Assembly: GCA_963543945.1 (NCBI GenBank)
Contig: CAUUCN010000001.1
Location: 1,118-65,117, forward strand
Direction of reading: 5' to 3'
Source: an uncultured Candidatus Saccharibacteria bacterium
GTDB lineage: Bacteria; Patescibacteriota; Saccharimonadia; Saccharimonadales; Saccharimonadaceae
DNA length: 64,000 nt
The notes below the pieces were generated by a model, which ran no database searches, was not told the DNA's origin, and saw only the letters and a list, made by a program, of their open reading frames with translations. Below are positions 49,951-62,548 of the stretch, one piece after another. Both the position numbers and the translations under genes were made by a program. The number at the start of each line of letters is the position of its first letter. The stretch's first letter is position 1.

Positions 49951-50808
49951 TTACAAACTGCTTATTTTTTCGATCATCTCTTCTATAGAACGGCGGCTAA
50001 AATTGCGGAACTTGGTTAAATCAGCATTCCTTGCCTCCTCAATTGTATTGATTCCGGCGTGTCTCAGACAGCTATAAGTGCGAGTAGATAAGTTGAGCAC
50101 TTCAATTGGACCGTCGACAGGTGCTGTCCTTCCGTATTTTTGTTCATAATACTCGAGAATTATCTTTGCAACAGATAACCCTCCCTCTGTTGCCAATAAA
50201 CGCGACTGAAGCTCTAATCTGCTCACCATTAGCAATCCCAATTGTCGTTTTATTCTCGGACGCCTAAGTTTTATTTTTGCTTTTGCCAGAATTTGCTTAA
50301 TGTATCCTCTGGTAGAGCAATATTTCTGAGCAATCTCTTCAAGAGACATACGCTCGCAGCCTAATCCGTAGTGAAGCTTTAAAATTGCGTTTTCCTTCTC
50401 AAATAAACTTGAGCAAAGGATACTATAAAGGCAATTTTTCTGATCATCCGTCATTGGATTTTCCCAAAAATGGTTGATTAATTCGGGGCGATTATTAATG
50501 GCAAAATCGACCAGAAAGTACTCTTCGTTGGGAATCTTCGTGCGCAAATCAAACTTGTTGATTAATTCGGAGCGATTATCATTGGCAAAAATATCAACCA
50601 AAAAATATTCCTCGTTGGAAAGCTTCGTGCGTAAACCATGCTTTTCCAATACTTCTTTGATTTCCTTAGCTTTTTTGGGACCGATTCCACGGATACCAGT
50701 GAGATTATCATAGCATGAACAAAGTGCAAGAGATTCGAGCGAATCAAACAGTGTAGTTGCAATAATTTTCTCGATTGACGGGTTACCTAAAAGATTAAGA
50801 TTCATCAT
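49951..50808 (-). CDS. Family A6: HhH plus internal 28-aa duplication plus sigma70 region-4-like plus alpha-CTD-like protein
   Basis: LTGIRGIGPKKAKEIKEVL; ENAILKLHYGLGCERMSLEEIAQKYCSTRGYIKQILAKAKIKLRR; IEVLNLSTRTYSCLRHAGINTIEEARN...FRNFSRRSIEEMIEKI. Confidence 0.75.
   Translation of the reverse strand: MMNLNLLGNPSIEKIIATTLFDSLESLALCSCYDNLTGIRGIGPKKAKEIKEVLEKHGLRTKLSNEEYFLVDIFANDNRSELINKFDLRTKIPNEEYFLVDFAINNRPELINHFWENPMTDDQKNCLYSILCSSLFEKENAILKLHYGLGCERMSLEEIAQKYCSTRGYIKQILAKAKIKLRRPRIKRQLGLLMVSRLELQSRLLATEGGLSVAKIILEYYEQKYGRTAPVDGPIEVLNLSTRTYSCLRHAGINTIEEARNADLTKFRNFSRRSIEEMIEKISSL
50473..50643. repeat. In-frame tandem duplication (84 + 87 nt) inside A6
   Basis: gttgattaattcgg(g/a)gcgattat... 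repeated with period 84 nt; encodes LRTK(L/I).NEEYFLVD...N(D)NR.ELIN.F twice. Confidence 0.85.
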
Positions 50809-51320: not shown

Positions 51321-51395
<75 letters not shown>

Positions 51396-51442
51396 ATATA
51401 AAAATTCCCACATCAATTTGACTGGGGATTTTAATGAACTTA

Positions 51443-51527
51443 TGGTGCTGGAGGTAGGACTCGAACCTACGAAGGTGTAACCCGAGAGATTTACAGTCTC
51501 TTGTCATTGCCGCTAGACTACTCCAGC
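51443..51527 (-). tRNA. trnY: tRNA-Tyr (anticodon GTA), class II with long variable arm
   Basis: Hand fold collinear with bacterial tRNA-Tyr: anticodon loop CTGTAAA, variable arm CGGGTTACACCTTCG, T-loop TTCGAGT, encoded CCA. Confidence 0.9.
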
Positions 51528-56058: not shown

Positions 56059-56155
56059 ATATTGCTACGCTACTTATTTTAATTTTTAAAACTTAAAATT
56101 ATAGAATAAATTCTAAATTTTAAGCCTTAAAAATAAAAATAGAGTTCCAAGGAAC
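56059..56155. repeat. ~97-nt AT-rich intergenic repeat, copy 2
   Basis: See 51124..51220; ~88% identity by eye. Confidence 0.8.
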
Positions 56156-56170
56156 TCATTTTTTTATTTT
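56132..56170. terminator. Bidirectional hairpin terminator
   Basis: GAGTTCC-aa-GGAACTC between an A-rich and a T-rich run. Confidence 0.65.
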
Positions 56171-56270
56171 TCATCCGTGGAGCCGCGTGTGCAAAAGCAC
56201 ACTTGCACCACTTCTTCAAATTCTTTGAAAAGTAAACTTTTCACGAATTTTCATCCGTGGAGCCGCGTGT
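56168..56270. repeat. 23-nt direct repeat of the tRNA-Thr(UGU) 3' end plus trailer (56168-56190 and 56248-56270)
   Basis: tttcatccgtggagccgcgtgt occurs twice, 80 nt apart. The distal copy is preceded by a GTGTGC-tttt-GCACAC hairpin on the minus strand. Confidence 0.85.
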
Positions 56271-56333
56271 CGGCTCTGCCCCGACGACCTGCCGCTTACA
56301 AGGCGGCTGCTCTACTAGCTGAGCTAACGCGGC
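56258..56333 (-). tRNA. trnT: tRNA-Thr (anticodon TGT) with non-canonical D-loop and T-loop
   Basis: Hand fold: acceptor GCCGCGT/ACGCGGC, anticodon loop CTTGTAA, encoded CCA. The T-loop is GGCAGAG (not TTCRANY) and the D-loop AGCTAGTA lacks the GG pair. Confidence 0.7.
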
Positions 56334-56358: not shown

Positions 56359-56367
56359 ATTTTAGCA
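56359..56367 (-). promoter_or_regulatory. Extended -10 promoter (TGcTAAAAT) for tRNA-Thr(UGU)
   Basis: Reverse complement of attttagca, ~25 nt upstream of the tRNA. Confidence 0.5.
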
Positions 56368-56467
56368 TGAGTTTAAGTTCTTCACAACCGCGAGATGGGT
56401 GAAAATACTAGATCGAATTGATTATTTAAAAAAGAGATAGCTATCCAAGTGGATTCTTTGAATATGC

Positions 56468-57331
56468 CTATTGAATCATCTTGCGGCGACGAGTAGAGGT
56501 GCGGGCGGCTGCAGGACGAGAAACGGCAGTGGCACTAAGTTTGGCATCTTGAATAGTACGTTCAGTGCTGGTTTGGCTGGTGGATCCACTGGATTTAGCG
56601 GTGGGTTTTTTAGCTTTCGGATAAAAAATCTTAGCTGGTCTCGCGGCGCGTACGGGTTTTTTAGCTACCGTGCGTTTTTGCTTCTTAGCGAGTTCCTGTT
56701 TTTTCTTTAATTCATCTTCGGCGACTTGTTGCTCGATTCTGGCGGTGACGATTTGGATATTTTCGGCGTCACCCATATCTTCGTAAATACTGAGAATATG
56801 GCGAAGGGTAGAAATGGAATGATCAAGAGCATAGGCGGATTCAAGTGCCTCGACGGCGGCCTTGCGGTGACCGAGTTTTTCTTCGGATTTAGCGAGTGCG
56901 ATAAAACGAGCTGGCACATCGCCTTCAAGTTTTAGAGCTTGTTGAAAGGCCATACTGGCTTTTTCGTAGGCACCGGTCTCGAGGTAAATTAGGCCGACGT
57001 TATGTAGAGAAGATGGGTTGCTGTCGAGAGACTGGGCGATTTCGAAGCATTCGATGGCTTCGTCGTAATTTTGCGATTTGGCATAGAGAATGCCGAGACG
57101 GTTGTAAGCCGCGGCGTTGGTTTCGTCGAATTTTAAGATAGTAAGCAGAGCTTTTTCGGCGCGAAGAGTTTTGCGTTCTTTCATACTGACTTTGGCGATA
57201 TCCCAAAGTTTTTTCATTTGAGCATCAAAATTCTTGTTTTCTGGAGCCGGTTTTTTGAGCCTGGCTTTGATTTTTGGTTCGAAAAAAATCAGAAAAATTA
57301 CGAAAAGTAAGATGAGGAAAATTCCTAGCAT
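56468..57331 (-). CDS. TPR-repeat protein with N-terminal TM helix and basic C-terminal tail
   Basis: AAYNRLGILYAKSQNYDEAIECFEIAQSLD-type TPR units; TATAAT-7 nt-ATG start. Confidence 0.75.
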   Translation of the reverse strand: MLGIFLILLFVIFLIFFEPKIKARLKKPAPENKNFDAQMKKLWDIAKVSMKERKTLRAEKALLTILKFDETNAAAYNRLGILYAKSQNYDEAIECFEIAQSLDSNPSSLHNVGLIYLETGAYEKASMAFQQALKLEGDVPARFIALAKSEEKLGHRKAAVEALESAYALDHSISTLRHILSIYEDMGDAENIQIVTARIEQQVAEDELKKKQELAKKQKRTVAKKPVRAARPAKIFYPKAKKPTAKSSGSTSQTSTERTIQDAKLSATAVSRPAAARTSTRRRKMIQ

Positions 57332-57447: not shown

Positions 57448-58116
57448 TTATAAGAGGTTAGCTACGAGCTGAAGTTTTTTATTGGCGGAAAAATCTGAGG
57501 TGAGATGTTTGGTCTCGATGAGGCCGGAAATTTTCTGGAGGAAGATAGGATTTTTGGTTTTGTAGTAAGATTTTTCGGCTAATTCAATAGTGGTATCGAG
57601 GATTTGATAGAAAAAATTGGGGTTGGTTTTCGGGGTAGATTTAATAATTTCGTCTGCGAGGACGGGGAGATCCTTGGCTCTTACTACAAGTAGTTTTTTG
57701 GCAAGTTCGAAAATTTTGGGGTCGGCTTTGGGTGTGGTTTTTAGGTAATCCTTCTCTTTGAAATAGAAAATCGCGGAACGCGAACGGATGGTGTCGAGTA
57801 AGCGGTTCGGATTTTTGGTAAAAAGTGCGAGATGATAATGATTCTTTGGCTCTTCGAGAGTTTTAAGAAGGGCGGAGGTGGCACTCGGAGTGAGAGTTTC
57901 GGCGTGATTAATGACAACAAAAATATCTGAGGTCTGAATGCTATTTAGATGAGATAAGATTTCGCGAATAGCTTCAACTGGGATCTTATTATTATCTTTT
58001 TCGTCCGGCTCGATGAGATAAGTGGCGCGAATATTAGGATTTTTTTCAAGATTAAAAATTGTGGAAGAATAAGCGGAGGCTAAAGCAGGGATTTCTGAAA
58101 GATTCTCGAAGTACAT
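57448..58116 (-). CDS. holB: DNA polymerase III delta-prime-like clamp-loader subunit (no Walker A)
   Basis: Start ATG 58116 (TACAAT-6 nt-ATG); LTPSATSALLKTLEEPKNHYHLALFT...LLDTIRSRS blocks. Confidence 0.6.
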   Translation of the reverse strand: MYFENLSEIPALASAYSSTIFNLEKNPNIRATYLIEPDEKDNNKIPVEAIREILSHLNSIQTSDIFVVINHAETLTPSATSALLKTLEEPKNHYHLALFTKNPNRLLDTIRSRSAIFYFKEKDYLKTTPKADPKIFELAKKLLVVRAKDLPVLADEIIKSTPKTNPNFFYQILDTTIELAEKSYYKTKNPIFLQKISGLIETKHLTSDFSANKKLQLVANLL

Positions 58117-58131
58117 ACTTCTATTGTAGTC

Positions 58132-58249
58132 TAGTTTAGAAAAAAGCAAAACCCGCTAGAAGTGTTAACTTAGTTTAGGAAAAAGTAAAACTCGCTAGAA
58201 GTGTTAACTTAGTTTAGAAAAAGTAAAACCCGCTAAGGGTGCGGGTTTT
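58132..58249. repeat. Three tandem 39-nt units derived from a terminator
   Basis: tagtttag(g)aaaaag.aaaac.cgctagaagtgttaact x3. Only the last unit keeps a full hairpin (AAAACCCGC-taagggt-GCGGGTTTT), which terminates the rluD-like gene. Confidence 0.85.
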
Positions 58250-58269: not shown

Positions 58270-59268
58270 CTATTGATTAAAGATTTGGAATTCTGGTGGG
58301 AGGTCAGTGGTGAAAGTGACACGGCGGCTTTCTGGAATGGTGATTTCAAGTGAAGCGGCATGTAGATAGAGACGGTCGGTGGTGTTTGGTTTGGCTGAAC
58401 CGTAGACACGGTCGCCGACGATTGGGGTGCCGAGGTAATTCATGTGGACGCGAAGTTGATGAGTGCGACCAGTGGTTGGGCGAAGCATGACGAGAGAGTA
58501 AGTCTTCCCTGCCTTGAATTCTTTACCAGAATATTCTGAGTGAGCTTGAATTAGTTTTTGGATTTCTTGAACGTCGGCGAGATTAAACTTCTTGGTGGCT
58601 TTTACTTCGTAGAAAGTTTCGGATTCTTTACCACCAGCTTCCACGACGAAAGTAGTAGGATGTTTGAGGTTGCGTTGGATTGGTAGATTGATGCGCGCTG
58701 CAGGTAATTTTGGTGCGCCTTCGGTGATGGCGTAGTAGGTTTTATGAATTTTACGATCTTGAAATTGTTTACGAAGCAGAGTTTGAGTCTCTGGATTTTT
58801 CGCCAAAATTACTACACCGGAAGTGTCGCGGTCGAGACGATGAACGAGAAGGCCGTAATCTTCGAGGGTTGGCTCTAACGTAACGGCGCCTTTGGCCATA
58901 CTAAGTAAGCCAGCTGGTTTTTCGAGGACAATAACATTATCGTCTTCGTAAATGGTTTTCGGTTTAAGGTTTTCGACAGCGGTAGCCTTGGCGTCAGAAT
59001 CCTTGAGAAAATCTGGAAGATTTAGTTCAATGATATCTTCTTCGTTAATCGCGGTGTTTGGTTTGGTGACTGGAGTTTGATTAACCGTGGCATAACCAGA
59101 TTTAATGAAAGTTTGCAAGGTATTGCGATTATAGTCTGGGTATTTTTCGACCAAAAAGTGATCCAAGCGATGGCGTGGCTTTTTGGTATCGATTTCCTTC
59201 AGGGTGACGTCGCCGTTAATGACGCGTGAAAGTGAAGGTTTGCTAAATTTTTTTCCAGTTCTTAACAT
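58270..59268 (-). CDS. rluD: RluA-family (RluD-like) pseudouridine synthase with S4 domain
   Basis: Start ATG 59268 (CATAAT-7 nt-ATG). The ORF-track N-terminus overlaps the upstream gene. RLDHFLVEKY S4 motif; HRLDRDTSGVVILAKN catalytic motif. Confidence 0.85.
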   Translation of the reverse strand: MLRTGKKFSKPSLSRVINGDVTLKEIDTKKPRHRLDHFLVEKYPDYNRNTLQTFIKSGYATVNQTPVTKPNTAINEEDIIELNLPDFLKDSDAKATAVENLKPKTIYEDDNVIVLEKPAGLLSMAKGAVTLEPTLEDYGLLVHRLDRDTSGVVILAKNPETQTLLRKQFQDRKIHKTYYAITEGAPKLPAARINLPIQRNLKHPTTFVVEAGGKESETFYEVKATKKFNLADVQEIQKLIQAHSEYSGKEFKAGKTYSLVMLRPTTGRTHQLRVHMNYLGTPIVGDRVYGSAKPNTTDRLYLHAASLEITIPESRRVTFTTDLPPEFQIFNQ

Positions 59269-59320
59269 TCTATATATTATGACATAATTTATGGATTTTG
59301 TATAGAGAAAAATCCGGATT

Positions 59321-62300
59321 TTAGTATCTTGGTGCAATCTCACGAGAATAGACCATGTAGGCTTGGCCGCCGCTGAGGGATTGGCGGTAGGCCCAGAAGT
59401 AGGCATCGGCGCGGAGGGTGAAGACTTCGGCAGGGTGGATGGAGCCTTCGGCGTAGTAGGTGCCAGTTGGTCCGGTTTGAAGTGGGTGGGTGCCAGCGCG
59501 GCCGCCACCAGTATGAGAGCCGGCGGTACGGTTTAGGATGAGCTTTCTAGCAAAGACCGGACCGGTGATGGTGAGAGTTTCGTTGCAAGAGAGAGCGTTC
59601 GGATAGTGGTTATCGGAACAGGTGTCGATTTGGTTATCGCCATAATCTTCGTCGAGGATTAGCCAGGCATCGATATTGGTGACGTTGCTGGTGATGTTGA
59701 TTTTCTTGGCAAAGATGAGAACTTGTGGGAAATCATCCACTGCGTTGTAGGTTTCGTGAGCGATATTGATGTTGCGATCGATGGTGAGCGTGCCATCGAC
59801 GTACATGGCGAGGGTGTTCATGAGCTTCTCACCAGTGGTATTGCTTCTCGCGATAAGGTTGCCGCCGCGATCAAACTGATAGAAATTGGCAGTACTGTTC
59901 ATGGCGCTAAGACTGGTATCTCCCTGATGATAGAGCTGGGAGAGGCCGAGATAGTTCTTTGCGGAAGTCTCATTAGAGGTGAGACTTGTGATGGTATTAC
60001 TAGAATTTCGGATGATGGTGTCGCGGAAGCGGGCCTTGAGACGGGCAAGGACGGCGGAACCGATACGGGAGATACCGGATTCACCAGATTTATTATCGTT
60101 CGAAACCGTGAGTGGGCTTAAGGCAATTTGATTACTTGCGGAATCTGCGCCACCATTTGGCAGATTGAAATTGTAATTTTCTTCGTAGCCTTGAATAGCA
60201 CCAGTGCCAAAGCCGTTAACTTTGCCGGCAGCAAGTGCGCTAAATTCCGTCCAAGAACCGAAAAATTTAGTGGAAGCAGATGGGTAGGCGCCGAGACCAG
60301 CACCGACGGCTTTATTGGAAACTGAGGTAATAATGGAGCCATTGGTGTAAATTCCGCCACCGAGAACTTGGAAATTTGGCTTCTTGGCAAGTGTGACGCA
60401 GGAGGCAGCGGAAATATGATATTGATTATTGCCGCCATTCATCGCGGAGCCACTGGTGTTATTTTCAATGGTATTTTCGGCTGAGTCGTGAGAAGCGGCT
60501 GGCCAGATGACAGAGCGGGTGCAATATTTTTTACCAAGGCCAGCGCCAGGGAGATTGTCTGGGATGGTACGTTCGTATAACTCAGTATTATTTTTTTCAC
60601 CGGAAAAATTACCGCTTGTGTTTATGGCTCTTGAAAATTCGTCGACTAGATTACATTGTTCGGTGCCACTACAGATAGTATTACTGGCGCGAGTTTCTTC
60701 TTGAAGCCTAGATTCTGGATAATTCTCATCGACGATCATTTCGTAAATTTTGACGGTTTGATCAGGGCGAGTATGGGTAGCGTATGGGGTTTTAGAAATT
60801 AGTTCATTAGTACGTGGGGTGACGCCGTAATTGGCGCTAATATTGATTTTATTACCGATAAAACCAACACCGCCTTCGGAAGATTCGATATAGCTATGGA
60901 TAGAAGTATTGAAATTATATGGGGTGTAGACAGAGGATTTTTTCTCAAGGTAGGTATCTTGGCCGTCGGAGCGGGTGGAGACGGTATCGTCAATGTATTT
61001 TCTAATATAATAATCTTCTTTTGGCCTACTGCATCCATTAGGGGTTGGCGTACATTTGGAGCCGGGTACAGGTCTCCTTTTTTTGAGATTTGTCTGATGA
61101 CCCCACGAACCCAAACTCCCGCCATCTACAGCACTTTCATAGGAATCATTTTGATAATGGTTGACTTGTTTATTTTCTTTTTCCCAGGTGGTGTATTCAT
61201 GATACCAAGCACGAAGATTGTTATAGCGAATACCTTGAGAAATTACAGTGCCAACTTCCGTGGTGTTCCCAGTCTTGGCGGCAGAATCACAACCGGATTG
61301 ATAATCGAGAAATCCGGGTATTTGGTAGCCAACCGTGAGTTTAGGTGTATTGATTTTATAATAACGAGTATCACAGGAATAGCTAGAAGAGGCTTTTTGG
61401 GTAGGAGAAAGTGCGGTGAATCCATAATCTTCAGCGGTGATACCGCTTCCGGTTATTGGTTTTGCGCTACTATTATTGATAGAGTGAATTTGTCCATCAT
61501 GAACTGGTGAATCACCAAAAAGATAATTATTGTTTCTACCGCCATTCTTTTCGGCGAAAATTTCGAATTGACTAGCCGGTGGAGCCTCGGCGTATTTGAC
61601 TTGCTGATTTTTGGTTTGCCGCCCAACTTGTTGAACTGAAAAACAAAAAGTTTCATAAAATTGCACGCGATCTCCTGGTCTTGCGAGGACGAAGTTTTTT
61701 CCTTTGAGATTTTTCTGCCAAGAATTATGGCCTAAGGAACCAGTGTAAGAATGGTTAATTACGCCAGTATCTGCGCCGGTAGTTCCCTTGTAGTACATAC
61801 CTTCAACTCCAGAAATTTGACTACAAGTGGTGTTGGTAGCTGTGGCTGGGGGTTCAGGTTTGTTTTTATCGTCATCTTCTTCAATAATAGTGTCTCTAGT
61901 GCAGAACCAAGAAAATTCACCGCGATTCCATTTTTCAACTTCAATCGGATCCGGCTTACCATCTCGATCTTCGTAGGTATAATGCCTCCTGACTTCTTTA
62001 TCTTCCTTACGATTGCCTATTCCATGCAAGATGTTATAGTTTGCACTAGATTTATGTTTTAGATAGTTCTTGTAGTATAGAGGCAACGCAGCAGCGCCGG
62101 TAGCTTTTTGGGTGTTTTTATTATAGAAATTATAGACAAAAATATAGACGCCAGAACTTTTGCCACAACCATAAACTTCGTTGTCTCCAGCTTTTAGTTT
62201 TGTAGGAGAGTTATTGGTTGGGTAGGTTGGATCTGTGTTGGTTAAAAAACGTGAATAAGGGATATGGTCACGTTCGTTTTTTGGAATACCCATCTTATCG

Positions 62301-62548
62301 AAGTTATATAATACCCAAGAAACACCGGCATAAGATTTAAACATGCTATAACAAATAGTGCCAGAACAATCGCCATTTTTATCTCCAGTTCCGCCTTCAC
62401 TTTTACCTGGAGCTCCAGGTCTAGTTACGGCATAAATAGGAAGAAATTTGATTAAGGAAAATCCTGCAATAAATAAAAATAGTAGAGCCAATAAGCACCC
62501 TACTTTATGTTTAATTAAGAATTTTTTCTGACCCACGACACGTTTCAT
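59321..62548 (-). CDS. Large secreted or surface hypothetical protein (1075 aa)
   Basis: N-terminal signal/anchor (CLLALLFLFIAGFSLIKFL); Gly/Asn/Thr/Ser-rich; TGcTAAAAT-6 nt-ATG start; no domain recognised. Confidence 0.8.
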   Translation of the reverse strand: MKRVVGQKKFLIKHKVGCLLALLFLFIAGFSLIKFLPIYAVTRPGAPGKSEGGTGDKNGDCSGTICYSMFKSYAGVSWVLYNFDKMGIPKNERDHIPYSRFLTNTDPTYPTNNSPTKLKAGDNEVYGCGKSSGVYIFVYNFYNKNTQKATGAAALPLYYKNYLKHKSSANYNILHGIGNRKEDKEVRRHYTYEDRDGKPDPIEVEKWNRGEFSWFCTRDTIIEEDDDKNKPEPPATATNTTCSQISGVEGMYYKGTTGADTGVINHSYTGSLGHNSWQKNLKGKNFVLARPGDRVQFYETFCFSVQQVGRQTKNQQVKYAEAPPASQFEIFAEKNGGRNNNYLFGDSPVHDGQIHSINNSSAKPITGSGITAEDYGFTALSPTQKASSSYSCDTRYYKINTPKLTVGYQIPGFLDYQSGCDSAAKTGNTTEVGTVISQGIRYNNLRAWYHEYTTWEKENKQVNHYQNDSYESAVDGGSLGSWGHQTNLKKRRPVPGSKCTPTPNGCSRPKEDYYIRKYIDDTVSTRSDGQDTYLEKKSSVYTPYNFNTSIHSYIESSEGGVGFIGNKINISANYGVTPRTNELISKTPYATHTRPDQTVKIYEMIVDENYPESRLQEETRASNTICSGTEQCNLVDEFSRAINTSGNFSGEKNNTELYERTIPDNLPGAGLGKKYCTRSVIWPAASHDSAENTIENNTSGSAMNGGNNQYHISAASCVTLAKKPNFQVLGGGIYTNGSIITSVSNKAVGAGLGAYPSASTKFFGSWTEFSALAAGKVNGFGTGAIQGYEENYNFNLPNGGADSASNQIALSPLTVSNDNKSGESGISRIGSAVLARLKARFRDTIIRNSSNTITSLTSNETSAKNYLGLSQLYHQGDTSLSAMNSTANFYQFDRGGNLIARSNTTGEKLMNTLAMYVDGTLTIDRNINIAHETYNAVDDFPQVLIFAKKINITSNVTNIDAWLILDEDYGDNQIDTCSDNHYPNALSCNETLTITGPVFARKLILNRTAGSHTGGGRAGTHPLQTGPTGTYYAEGSIHPAEVFTLRADAYFWAYRQSLSGGQAYMVYSREIAPRY

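Follow-up and report, generated by a model that had tools for sequence, protein, structure and literature searches.

The stretch analysed here, referred to as the window, comprises 64,000 nucleotides of contig CAUUCN010000001.1 from an uncultured Candidatus Saccharibacteria bacterium. Its minus strand carries at 56258-56333 a 76-nt gene coding a tRNA-Thr(UGU) that has a normal cloverleaf, an encoded CCA end (56258-56260) and an unusual elbow. Read directly as the reverse complement of these positions the gene is, from 5' to 3', GCCGCGT-TA-GCTC-AGCTAGTA-GAGC-A-GCCGC-CTTGTAA-GCGGC-AGGTC-GTCGG-GGCAGAG-CCGAC-ACGCGGC-T-CCA. Because of its length of 76 nt, standard tRNA numbering can be applied directly and maps one to one onto the gene, the window coordinate being 56334 minus the tRNA position. 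The cloverleaf has stems of 7, 4, 5 and 5 bp, all four of them paired, a 7-nt anticodon loop CUUGUAA with U33 and A37 in which the anticodon UGU occupies 56298-56300, a 5-nt variable loop and a 7-nt T-loop. The acceptor arm, the anticodon stem-loop CTTGTAA, the stems and the CCA had been described as normal in the initial annotation of the window, and re-reading of the sequence confirms this. The Rfam tRNA model RF00005 gives a full-length match (1-71) of 52.7 bits, compared to a gathering score of 29 (E = 4e-10), with a posterior probability that is low across the T-loop only.

The T arm (56269-56285, minus strand) features the stem GUCGG/CCGAC, which pairs positions 49-53 with 61-65 and flanks the non-canonical loop G54 G55 C56 A57 G58 A59 G60 (56274-56280, read from 56280 to 56274). 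This loop reads GGCAGAG in place of the usual UUCRANY, and the earlier statement that T54, pseudouridine 55 (Psi55) and A58 are all replaced is thereby borne out. The D-loop AGCTAGTA (56313-56320, minus strand) corresponds to A14 G15 C16 U17 A18 G19 U20 A21, with A18 at 56316 and G19 at 56315. It had been reported to lack GG; the dinucleotide is indeed absent, but only position 18 is changed, from G to A, and G19 is kept. The near-invariant elbow set G18, U54, U55 and A58 is thus absent from this tRNA, the residues found being A18, G54, G55 and G58. In the canonical elbow U55 contacts G18, C56 pairs with G19 and the purine at position 57 is sandwiched in the stack (PMC7912444). The outer platform is kept in the window tRNA, where G19, C56, A57, G53 and C61 are present, and these residues are invariant in the Saccharibacteria alignment. 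The E. coli threonine identity set is matched by the gene in its G1-C72 and C2-G71 pairs and in the anticodon U34 G35 U36. Threonine identity is carried by the acceptor pairs and the anticodon, and the elbow is not part of it (PMC9976931).

The distribution of this elbow was established by a scan of species-representative genomes in which the D stem and the anticodon arm were fixed while the D-loop interior and the whole T arm were free, yielding at least 119 loci. Conservation of the D and anticodon arms is uninformative in this set because they were fixed by the search pattern. The canonical combination G18/U54/U55/A58 is found in at least 97 copies and G18/U54/C55/A58 in at least 6. The combination of the window, A18/G54/G55/G58 (called odd hereafter), is found in at least 14 complete copies from at least 13 assemblies, all of them Candidatus Saccharibacteria. 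Among the matches listed, one of the 13 odd assemblies is labelled Candidatus Nanosynbacter, so that the sampled members of the odd sub-lineage include a Nanosynbacter metagenome-assembled genome (MAG), and the canonical form occurs in at least 26 Saccharibacteria, Nanosyncoccus or Nanosyncoccaceae assemblies. Two metagenome scans were added. One, for A18 together with a base other than G55, had no match in 241 million records; the other, for any base at position 18 combined with a base other than U at position 55, returned 110 loci, 83 of them with A18 and GGCAGAG and 26 with G18, U54 and C55. The reciprocal combination, G18 with G55, is found in none of the 226 loci listed from the species-representative and metagenome scans, and no mixed state occurs anywhere. 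A18 and G55 are strictly coupled in every sequence found. The identical T-loop and A18 recur in at least 97 further complete copies from independent assemblies, showing that the window elbow is neither a chance variant nor an assembly error.

The odd elbow is confined to a single tRNA species. The three remaining tRNAs of the window, tRNA-Trp, tRNA-Thr(GGU) and tRNA-Tyr, have GG D-loops and TTCRA T-loops, as had been noted before, and the other tRNAs encoded in odd loci are canonical too: ARAGORN finds 77 with TTC.A loops, together with 16 tRNA-Ala with U56. The view that the feature is not lineage-wide consequently holds for the other tRNAs of the genome but not for tRNA-Thr(UGU), for which it is clade-wide. 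The Saccharibacteria tRNA-Ala(CGC/GGC) deserves separate mention. It has the T-loop TTTGAAT (U56) and a D-loop with CTGATAGA (A19), the outer pair G19-C56 having covaried to A19-U56 in lineages of both odd and canonical type (L070, L104, L129, L153, L156, L159, L169, L173, L191, L196, L197, L199, L209, L218, L224 and L225; also L043 and L117).

The odd tRNA-Thr(UGU) is not called by ARAGORN in the window, yet it scores well above the Rfam threshold. The ARAGORN miss is caused by the T-loop: the call returns in silico after G54, G55 or G58 is reverted singly, and A18G alone is insufficient. When Rfam is applied to 11 odd loci each has one low-scoring tRNA, the odd tRNA-Thr (48-54 bits), the others reaching 51.5-68 bits. 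Annotation based on ARAGORN silently drops the odd gene, genomes of this clade can appear devoid of a decoder for ACA/ACG, and the dropped gene could distort analyses of the tRNA complement and of genome completeness in Saccharibacteria.

The genome segment upstream of the tRNA codes, on the same minus strand, a TPR-repeat protein (56468-57331; Pfam TPR matches), which is the conserved upstream neighbour, a DNA polymerase III delta'-like protein (holB; 57448-58149; Pfam PF13177) and an RluD-like pseudouridine synthase (58270-59508; Pfam S4 and PseudoU_synth_2). The three genes serve as synteny anchors and the RluD-like gene was also used for trees. Searches with tblastn show that tRNA-Thr(UGU) adjoins these genes in odd loci (L045, L070, L073, L075, L104 and others) as well as in canonical ones (L005, L010, L016, L021, L027, L043, L057, L077, L100 and L117), the TPR protein next to tRNA-Thr(UGU) being 61-96% identical across both types. 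The shared neighbours identify the odd gene as the positional ortholog of the ordinary Saccharibacteria tRNA-Thr(UGU), a position that lends no support to the suggestion that it might be a decoy or regulatory RNA. The initial annotation had also allowed for a lineage-specific but ordinary tRNA. Comparison of the orthologs agrees with the first half of this description, the loop being lineage-specific; the second half may not apply, since four near-invariant elbow nucleotides are replaced. The RluD-like gene as called overlaps by ~190 bp, at its 5' end, the 3' end of a 1075-aa open reading frame (ORF) at 59321-62548 (minus strand) that has no Pfam match, and one of the two starts has probably been misplaced; the only tblastn match of this ORF among the first 119 loci listed is a weak one in L048 (33% over 147 aa).

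The stems of the odd tRNA bear the marks of selection. The acceptor pair 5:68 is occupied by U-A in 62 of the 97 odd copies listed and by C-G in 35; one odd copy has A-U as pair 6:67. Over 14 distinct Saccharibacteria variants the stem cells are 100% paired, with six pairs changed on both sides. Between odd group A, to which the window belongs, and odd group B the flanking proteins differ at ~42% of sites while the tRNA is identical. The T stem GUCGG/CCGAC is the same as in canonical Saccharibacteria tRNA-Thr(UGU), for instance L005, and the anticodon arm, which was fixed by the search pattern, is identical in the odd tRNA and its canonical relatives. T-stem pairs tune the affinity for EF-Tu, and their identity, with that of the anticodon arm, means that the EF-Tu-tuning pairs and the decoding part are unchanged.

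Putative expression signals bracket the gene. About 25 nt upstream lies a promoter-like site on the minus strand (56359-56387), composed of TTGTGA, a 17-nt spacer and a TG-extended TAAAAT, and a terminator-like hairpin followed by a T run (56142-56157, minus strand) is localized 3' of the tRNA and of the insertion described below; both are consensus matches only. The extended -10-like motif TGnTAnAAT is found at a fixed distance upstream of the tRNA in diverged group-A relatives whose spacers are otherwise different. In certain other lineages tRNA-Tyr directly precedes tRNA-Thr(UGU), as observed in the odd loci L045 and L225 and in the canonical loci L005 and L057; in the window tRNA-Tyr is paired with tRNA-Thr(GGU) at 51321-51527, 5 kb from tRNA-Thr(UGU). 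Conservation, orthology, compensation and the upstream signals exclude both decay and assembly error.

The long ORFs of the window use ACA and ACG at 6.8 and 7.3 per 1000 codons, respectively (sum ~14), and so require a decoder for these codons. A codon-usage sign of a poor decoder was considered and rejected. ACA amounts to 13% in odd compared to 20% in canonical loci, but GCA, GTA and CTA fall in parallel, and this parallel fall of A-ending Ala, Val and Leu codons reveals a third-position composition effect that is not specific of Thr.

The gene of the window probably codes the elongator tRNA-Thr(UGU) of a large Saccharibacteria sub-lineage, located on the chromosome, maintained by vertical descent and provided with a re-wired elbow, and its most likely task is the decoding of ACA/ACG. 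It is a genuine tRNA that fails the canonical elbow-nucleotide criterion in a conserved and coherent way.

In the proposed elbow the inner contacts would be replaced as one set, with retention of the outer platform formed by G19-C56, A57 and G53-C61. The reverse Hoogsteen pair U54-A58 would give way to a purine-purine pair G54-G58 and G18-Psi55 to A18-G55, positions 59-60 changing from GU to AG. T-loops found outside tRNA have the consensus YGNRA, in which the G at position 2 receives at its sugar edge two hydrogen bonds from an adenosine; this adenosine intercalates between positions 4 and 5 and the intercalator is almost exclusively an adenosine (10.1101/2022.12.26.521914). The tRNAs form a T-loop class of their own, in which position 2 is U and G18 intercalates, and a distinct rRNA T-loop reads GGAAG (10.1101/2022.12.26.521914). 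At the sequence level the window tRNA follows the generic rule, as it has GGCAG, then AG in the slots of the two flipped-out 3' nucleotides, and the D-loop adenosine A18. The elbow would accordingly have passed from the pairing of the tRNA class, in which U at position 2 meets a guanosine, to that of the general class, in which G at position 2 meets an adenosine, with closure of the loop by G-G. Such a change of class would account for the strict association of G18A with U55G. The altered contact of the D-loop with the T-loop, raised earlier with a question mark as A18-G55, is the explanation favoured here on account of the perfect coupling and of the rule that joins G at position 2 to an intercalating A. 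The absence of U54, U55, A58 and G18 renders the usual modifications m5U54, Psi55, m1A58 and Gm18 impossible at those positions.

Among the matches listed, the closest canonical sequences (L066 and L105) are distinguished from the odd tRNA solely by positions 18, 54, 55, 58, 59 and 60 and by the compensated pair 52:62. Through the five T-loop substitutions positions 54-61 have come to read GGCAGAGC, a sequence identical in 7 of 8 positions to the ancestral D-arm sequence 18-25, GGUAGAGC. Of the 243 possible five-site variants just 6, the observed loop included (~2.5%), reach 7/8 identity to a sequence elsewhere in the tRNA. An intragenic template switch or gene conversion may therefore have created the loop in one step, and G18A would have followed.

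Several points weigh against this account of the gene. Aminoacylation, EF-Tu binding, RNase P processing and use by the ribosome are predicted from the features of the gene. The odd gene would also be the only UGU gene of its genome, a status for which the support is that none of the assemblies among the matches listed has both types. The tertiary pairs G54-G58 and A18-G55 are proposed by analogy. The coupling of A18 to the loop is not statistical covariation and may reflect a single historical event. For the window tRNA, which has C16, an alternative fold that joins D-arm positions 10-17 to T-loop positions 54-61 is predicted at -35.4 kcal/mol and the cloverleaf at -35.1 kcal/mol; the commoner T16 variant has the cloverleaf as its minimum-energy fold. 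A one-step origin of the loop is modestly supported (p ~0.025) and leaves the retained C56 unexplained. A conformational switch was also examined as a mechanism and rejected. In cloverleaf probability the odd loop holds rank 167-172 among 243 random five-site variants, which makes the fold competition unremarkable.

The history of the flanking genes is a further difficulty. Neighbour-joining trees were built from the RluD-like, holB-like and TPR proteins, three linked genes that provide ~700 columns. They distinguish an outer canonical group O, the odd groups A and B, and a canonical group C. The split of B+C from O+A has 81-97% bootstrap support under several distance corrections, while monophyly of the odd groups obtains 0-8%. 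The protein distances are 0.42 between A and B, 0.40 between B and C and 0.44 between A and C, and equal distances to the outgroup make long-branch attraction unlikely. The presence of tRNA-Tyr directly upstream in some odd members of B and some canonical members of C agrees with the flanking-protein tree. The trees do not yield a clean single-clade origin of the odd state, as a canonical group nests among the odd ones. The canonical allele may have been re-acquired in C, the odd allele may have moved between lineages, or the three-gene tree may be misleading; simple vertical inheritance may thus oversimplify the history of the gene.

The same tree is the starting point of the alternative that survives best, although it is rather unlikely: the odd elbow would be an adaptive allele, for example one providing escape from a nuclease directed to the T-loop or from modification-dependent surveillance, or acting as a partner discriminator, and would have spread between lineages by homologous replacement and not by descent only. 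The pairing of canonical C with odd B, the upstream tRNA-Tyr common to some members of both, the concentration of the six substitutions in the elbow while ~60 other positions are the same as in L066 and L105, and the lack of intermediates in very large samples (241 million records; 226 loci listed) are all in its favour. The tree is, however, a neighbour-joining tree of three linked genes with ~700 columns and small differences in distance, no nuclease or partner was identified, and a single origin followed by one later allele replacement, or an error of the tree, fits the data equally well. The boldest version, in which the translation of ACA/ACG throughout a branch of Saccharibacteria relies on a tRNA elbow of riboswitch/rRNA type which arose as an adaptive allele in one template-switch step and spread by recombination, is probably not correct as a whole; recombinational spread would explain a distribution that conflicts with the flanking-gene tree.

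Somewhat less probable is that the gene codes a specialised non-translational donor of aminoacyl groups whose T-loop diverts it from the ribosome, similarly to the staphylococcal tRNA-Gly used by Fem transferases to build cell-wall bridges. The precedent is clear, as those tRNAs have TGC or TGT instead of TTC in the T-loop and no pseudouridine (PMC7826273). The gene studied here lies instead at the syntenic position of the ordinary tRNA-Thr(UGU), and the scan, which was agnostic to the T arm, found no assembly with both odd and canonical copies among the matches listed. Threonine is used in the peptidoglycan bridges of some bacteria, which would suit such a cell-wall donor. The T stem shared with canonical relatives shows, to the contrary, no EF-Tu-weakening pair changes, the ribosome-facing platform G19-C56 is retained, and ACA and ACG codons need a decoder. 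No Fem-type gene is found among the 10 ORFs near the tRNA that were scanned against Pfam, a scan that included no search aimed at Fem genes.

An insertion of 80 bp (56178-56257, minus strand) directly follows the 3' end of the tRNA and consists of 67 nt with two small hairpins and then a 13-nt copy of the tRNA 3' end, ACACGCGGCUCCA. In the window the exact direct repeat extends to 23 nt (56168-56190 and 56248-56270). Relatives with a 93-97% identical RluD-like protein either have the insertion or a tRNA that runs straight into the trailer which otherwise follows the second repeat. The insertion is present in L121, L131, L140, L141, L153, L171, L177, L213 and L220 and absent from L029, L168 and L193. 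A direct repeat of 13-23 nt of the tRNA 3' end, found 80 bp downstream and variably present in close relatives, is typical of integration at tRNA 3' ends, and the insertion looks like the scar of an element integrated at this site. It could be imagined that the attachment site of such an element supplied a foreign 3' part including the T-loop, which would make the tRNA a chimera; the earlier proposal had been of a gene derived from a mobile element. This origin is highly improbable. The 13-nt repeat covers only tRNA positions 64-76 and thus begins after the T-loop, the three relatives devoid of the insertion carry the same loop, the 67 nt between the repeats have no ORF and no integrase, the T arm has no exact match in a scan of 2.9 million viral contigs, and a foreign 3' part would leave the coupled change in the D-loop unexplained. 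A phage or mobile-element origin of the loop was rejected for these reasons, and the insertion is, judging from its extent and distribution, accessory and not the cause of the odd loop.

That the gene is decaying under relaxed selection, as had been suggested, might be expected in the reduced genomes of Saccharibacteria and would agree with its rejection by ARAGORN and with degenerate tandem copies at the locus of one relative (L084), but it is scarcely tenable for an elbow that is identical in more than 95 loci (at least 97 copies besides that of the window), in a tRNA whose stems are paired with compensation, whose anticodon arm, CCA and promoter-like motifs, or linkage to tRNA-Tyr, are intact and whose flanks have diverged by ~42% at the protein level.

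A few relatives have peculiarities at the locus. In L084 the degenerate tandem copy (~2752-2830) lies just upstream of the odd tRNA, with which it shares the GGCAGAG T arm; its anticodon loop TATAACTA is 8 nt long, its first position is an A and CCA is lacking. L015 has the odd tRNA at a contig end, in two inverted copies. The 867-kb metagenome contig L151 (7939-8009 and 3180-3252) encodes a tRNA-Thr with anticodon AGT (A34) where its relatives have tRNA-Thr(GGU), and its odd tRNA-Thr(UGU) has A1 opposite C72. Elsewhere in the window, a 285-aa ORF (49951-50808, minus strand) has Pfam matches to HHH_5, sigma-70 region 4 and the C-terminal domain of the RNA polymerase alpha subunit, a combination that is unusual for a small protein.

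In cytosolic elongator tRNAs, U54, U55 (in the form of pseudouridine), A58 and G18 are regarded as almost universal. The corner that they build is seen by RNase P, the ribosome, CCA-adding enzymes and several modification enzymes, and also in EF-Tu-bound tRNA. No description of a tRNA with G54/G55/G58/A18 was found in the literature on the tRNAs of Saccharibacteria, Patescibacteria and the Candidate Phyla Radiation or on U55G, and this elbow is missing from reviews that deal with T-loop conservation and with non-canonical tRNAs. If the re-wired elbow is correct, it would show which of its parts are truly required, the outer G19-C56 being kept and the interior rebuilt, and it would link the T-loops of tRNA to the T-loop/receptor grammar of riboswitches and rRNA. 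The tRNA would also offer a natural substrate refractory to TruB, TrmA/TrmFO, TrmI and TrmH at the positions where these enzymes usually act.

A close structural parallel is the generic T-loop motif. Positions 1-5 of the window loop read GGCAG, with G at position 2 and a purine at position 4, and A18 is the predicted intercalator; the G1...G5 arrangement is that of the rRNA loop GGAAG. Generic T-loops sit in riboswitches, introns and rRNA, whereas the window case is a tRNA elbow of predicted geometry. A purine-purine pair at the same place within a tRNA has a precedent in the eukaryotic initiator tRNA, which has a longer A54-A58 pair (PMC7912444). That initiator tRNA-Met (A54, A60) keeps U55, A58 and G18 and its variant elbow serves its discrimination as initiator, while the window gene codes an elongator-type tRNA-Thr with G54, G55, G58 and A18. 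The tRNA-Pyl and those metazoan mitochondrial tRNAs that lack G18 G19 and T-Psi-C likewise function although their elbow is devoid of the canonical residues (PMC7609411). In these tRNAs G19-C56 is lost as well, D-loops are shortened or arms missing, and the partners are dedicated or co-evolved, in contrast to the standard loop sizes, complete set of stems and G19-C56 of the window tRNA.

A second departure from the canonical elbow is found in tRNA-Thr(UGU) itself. The form with G18 and a TCCRANN T-loop is present in L006, L040, L064, L082, L087 and L096 and in 26 metagenome loci (e.g. L122, L124, L142 and L176), on at least five acceptor-stem backbones that include FCPU426, a 'Patescibacteria group' MAG and one of Saccharibacteria type (L176); the 43 other tRNAs of TCCRANN loci are all canonical. 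These tRNAs from FCPU426, Patescibacteria and other MAGs have the same D and anticodon arms as the window tRNA and likewise lose U55 in this single tRNA while neighbouring tRNAs stay canonical. They differ from it in having the single substitution U55C, with G18, U54 and A58 kept.

The staphylococcal non-proteogenic tRNA-Gly shares with the window tRNA the absence of U55, and hence of pseudouridine, and is a real, expressed and aminoacylated tRNA (PMC7826273). It is coded by extra isoacceptor genes beside the proteogenic copies and keeps U54. Changes in its T stem lower EF-Tu binding. The window gene is instead the positional ortholog of the only tRNA-Thr(UGU) seen, its T stem and G19-C56 are canonical, and positions 54, 55, 58, 59, 60 and 18 are changed together.

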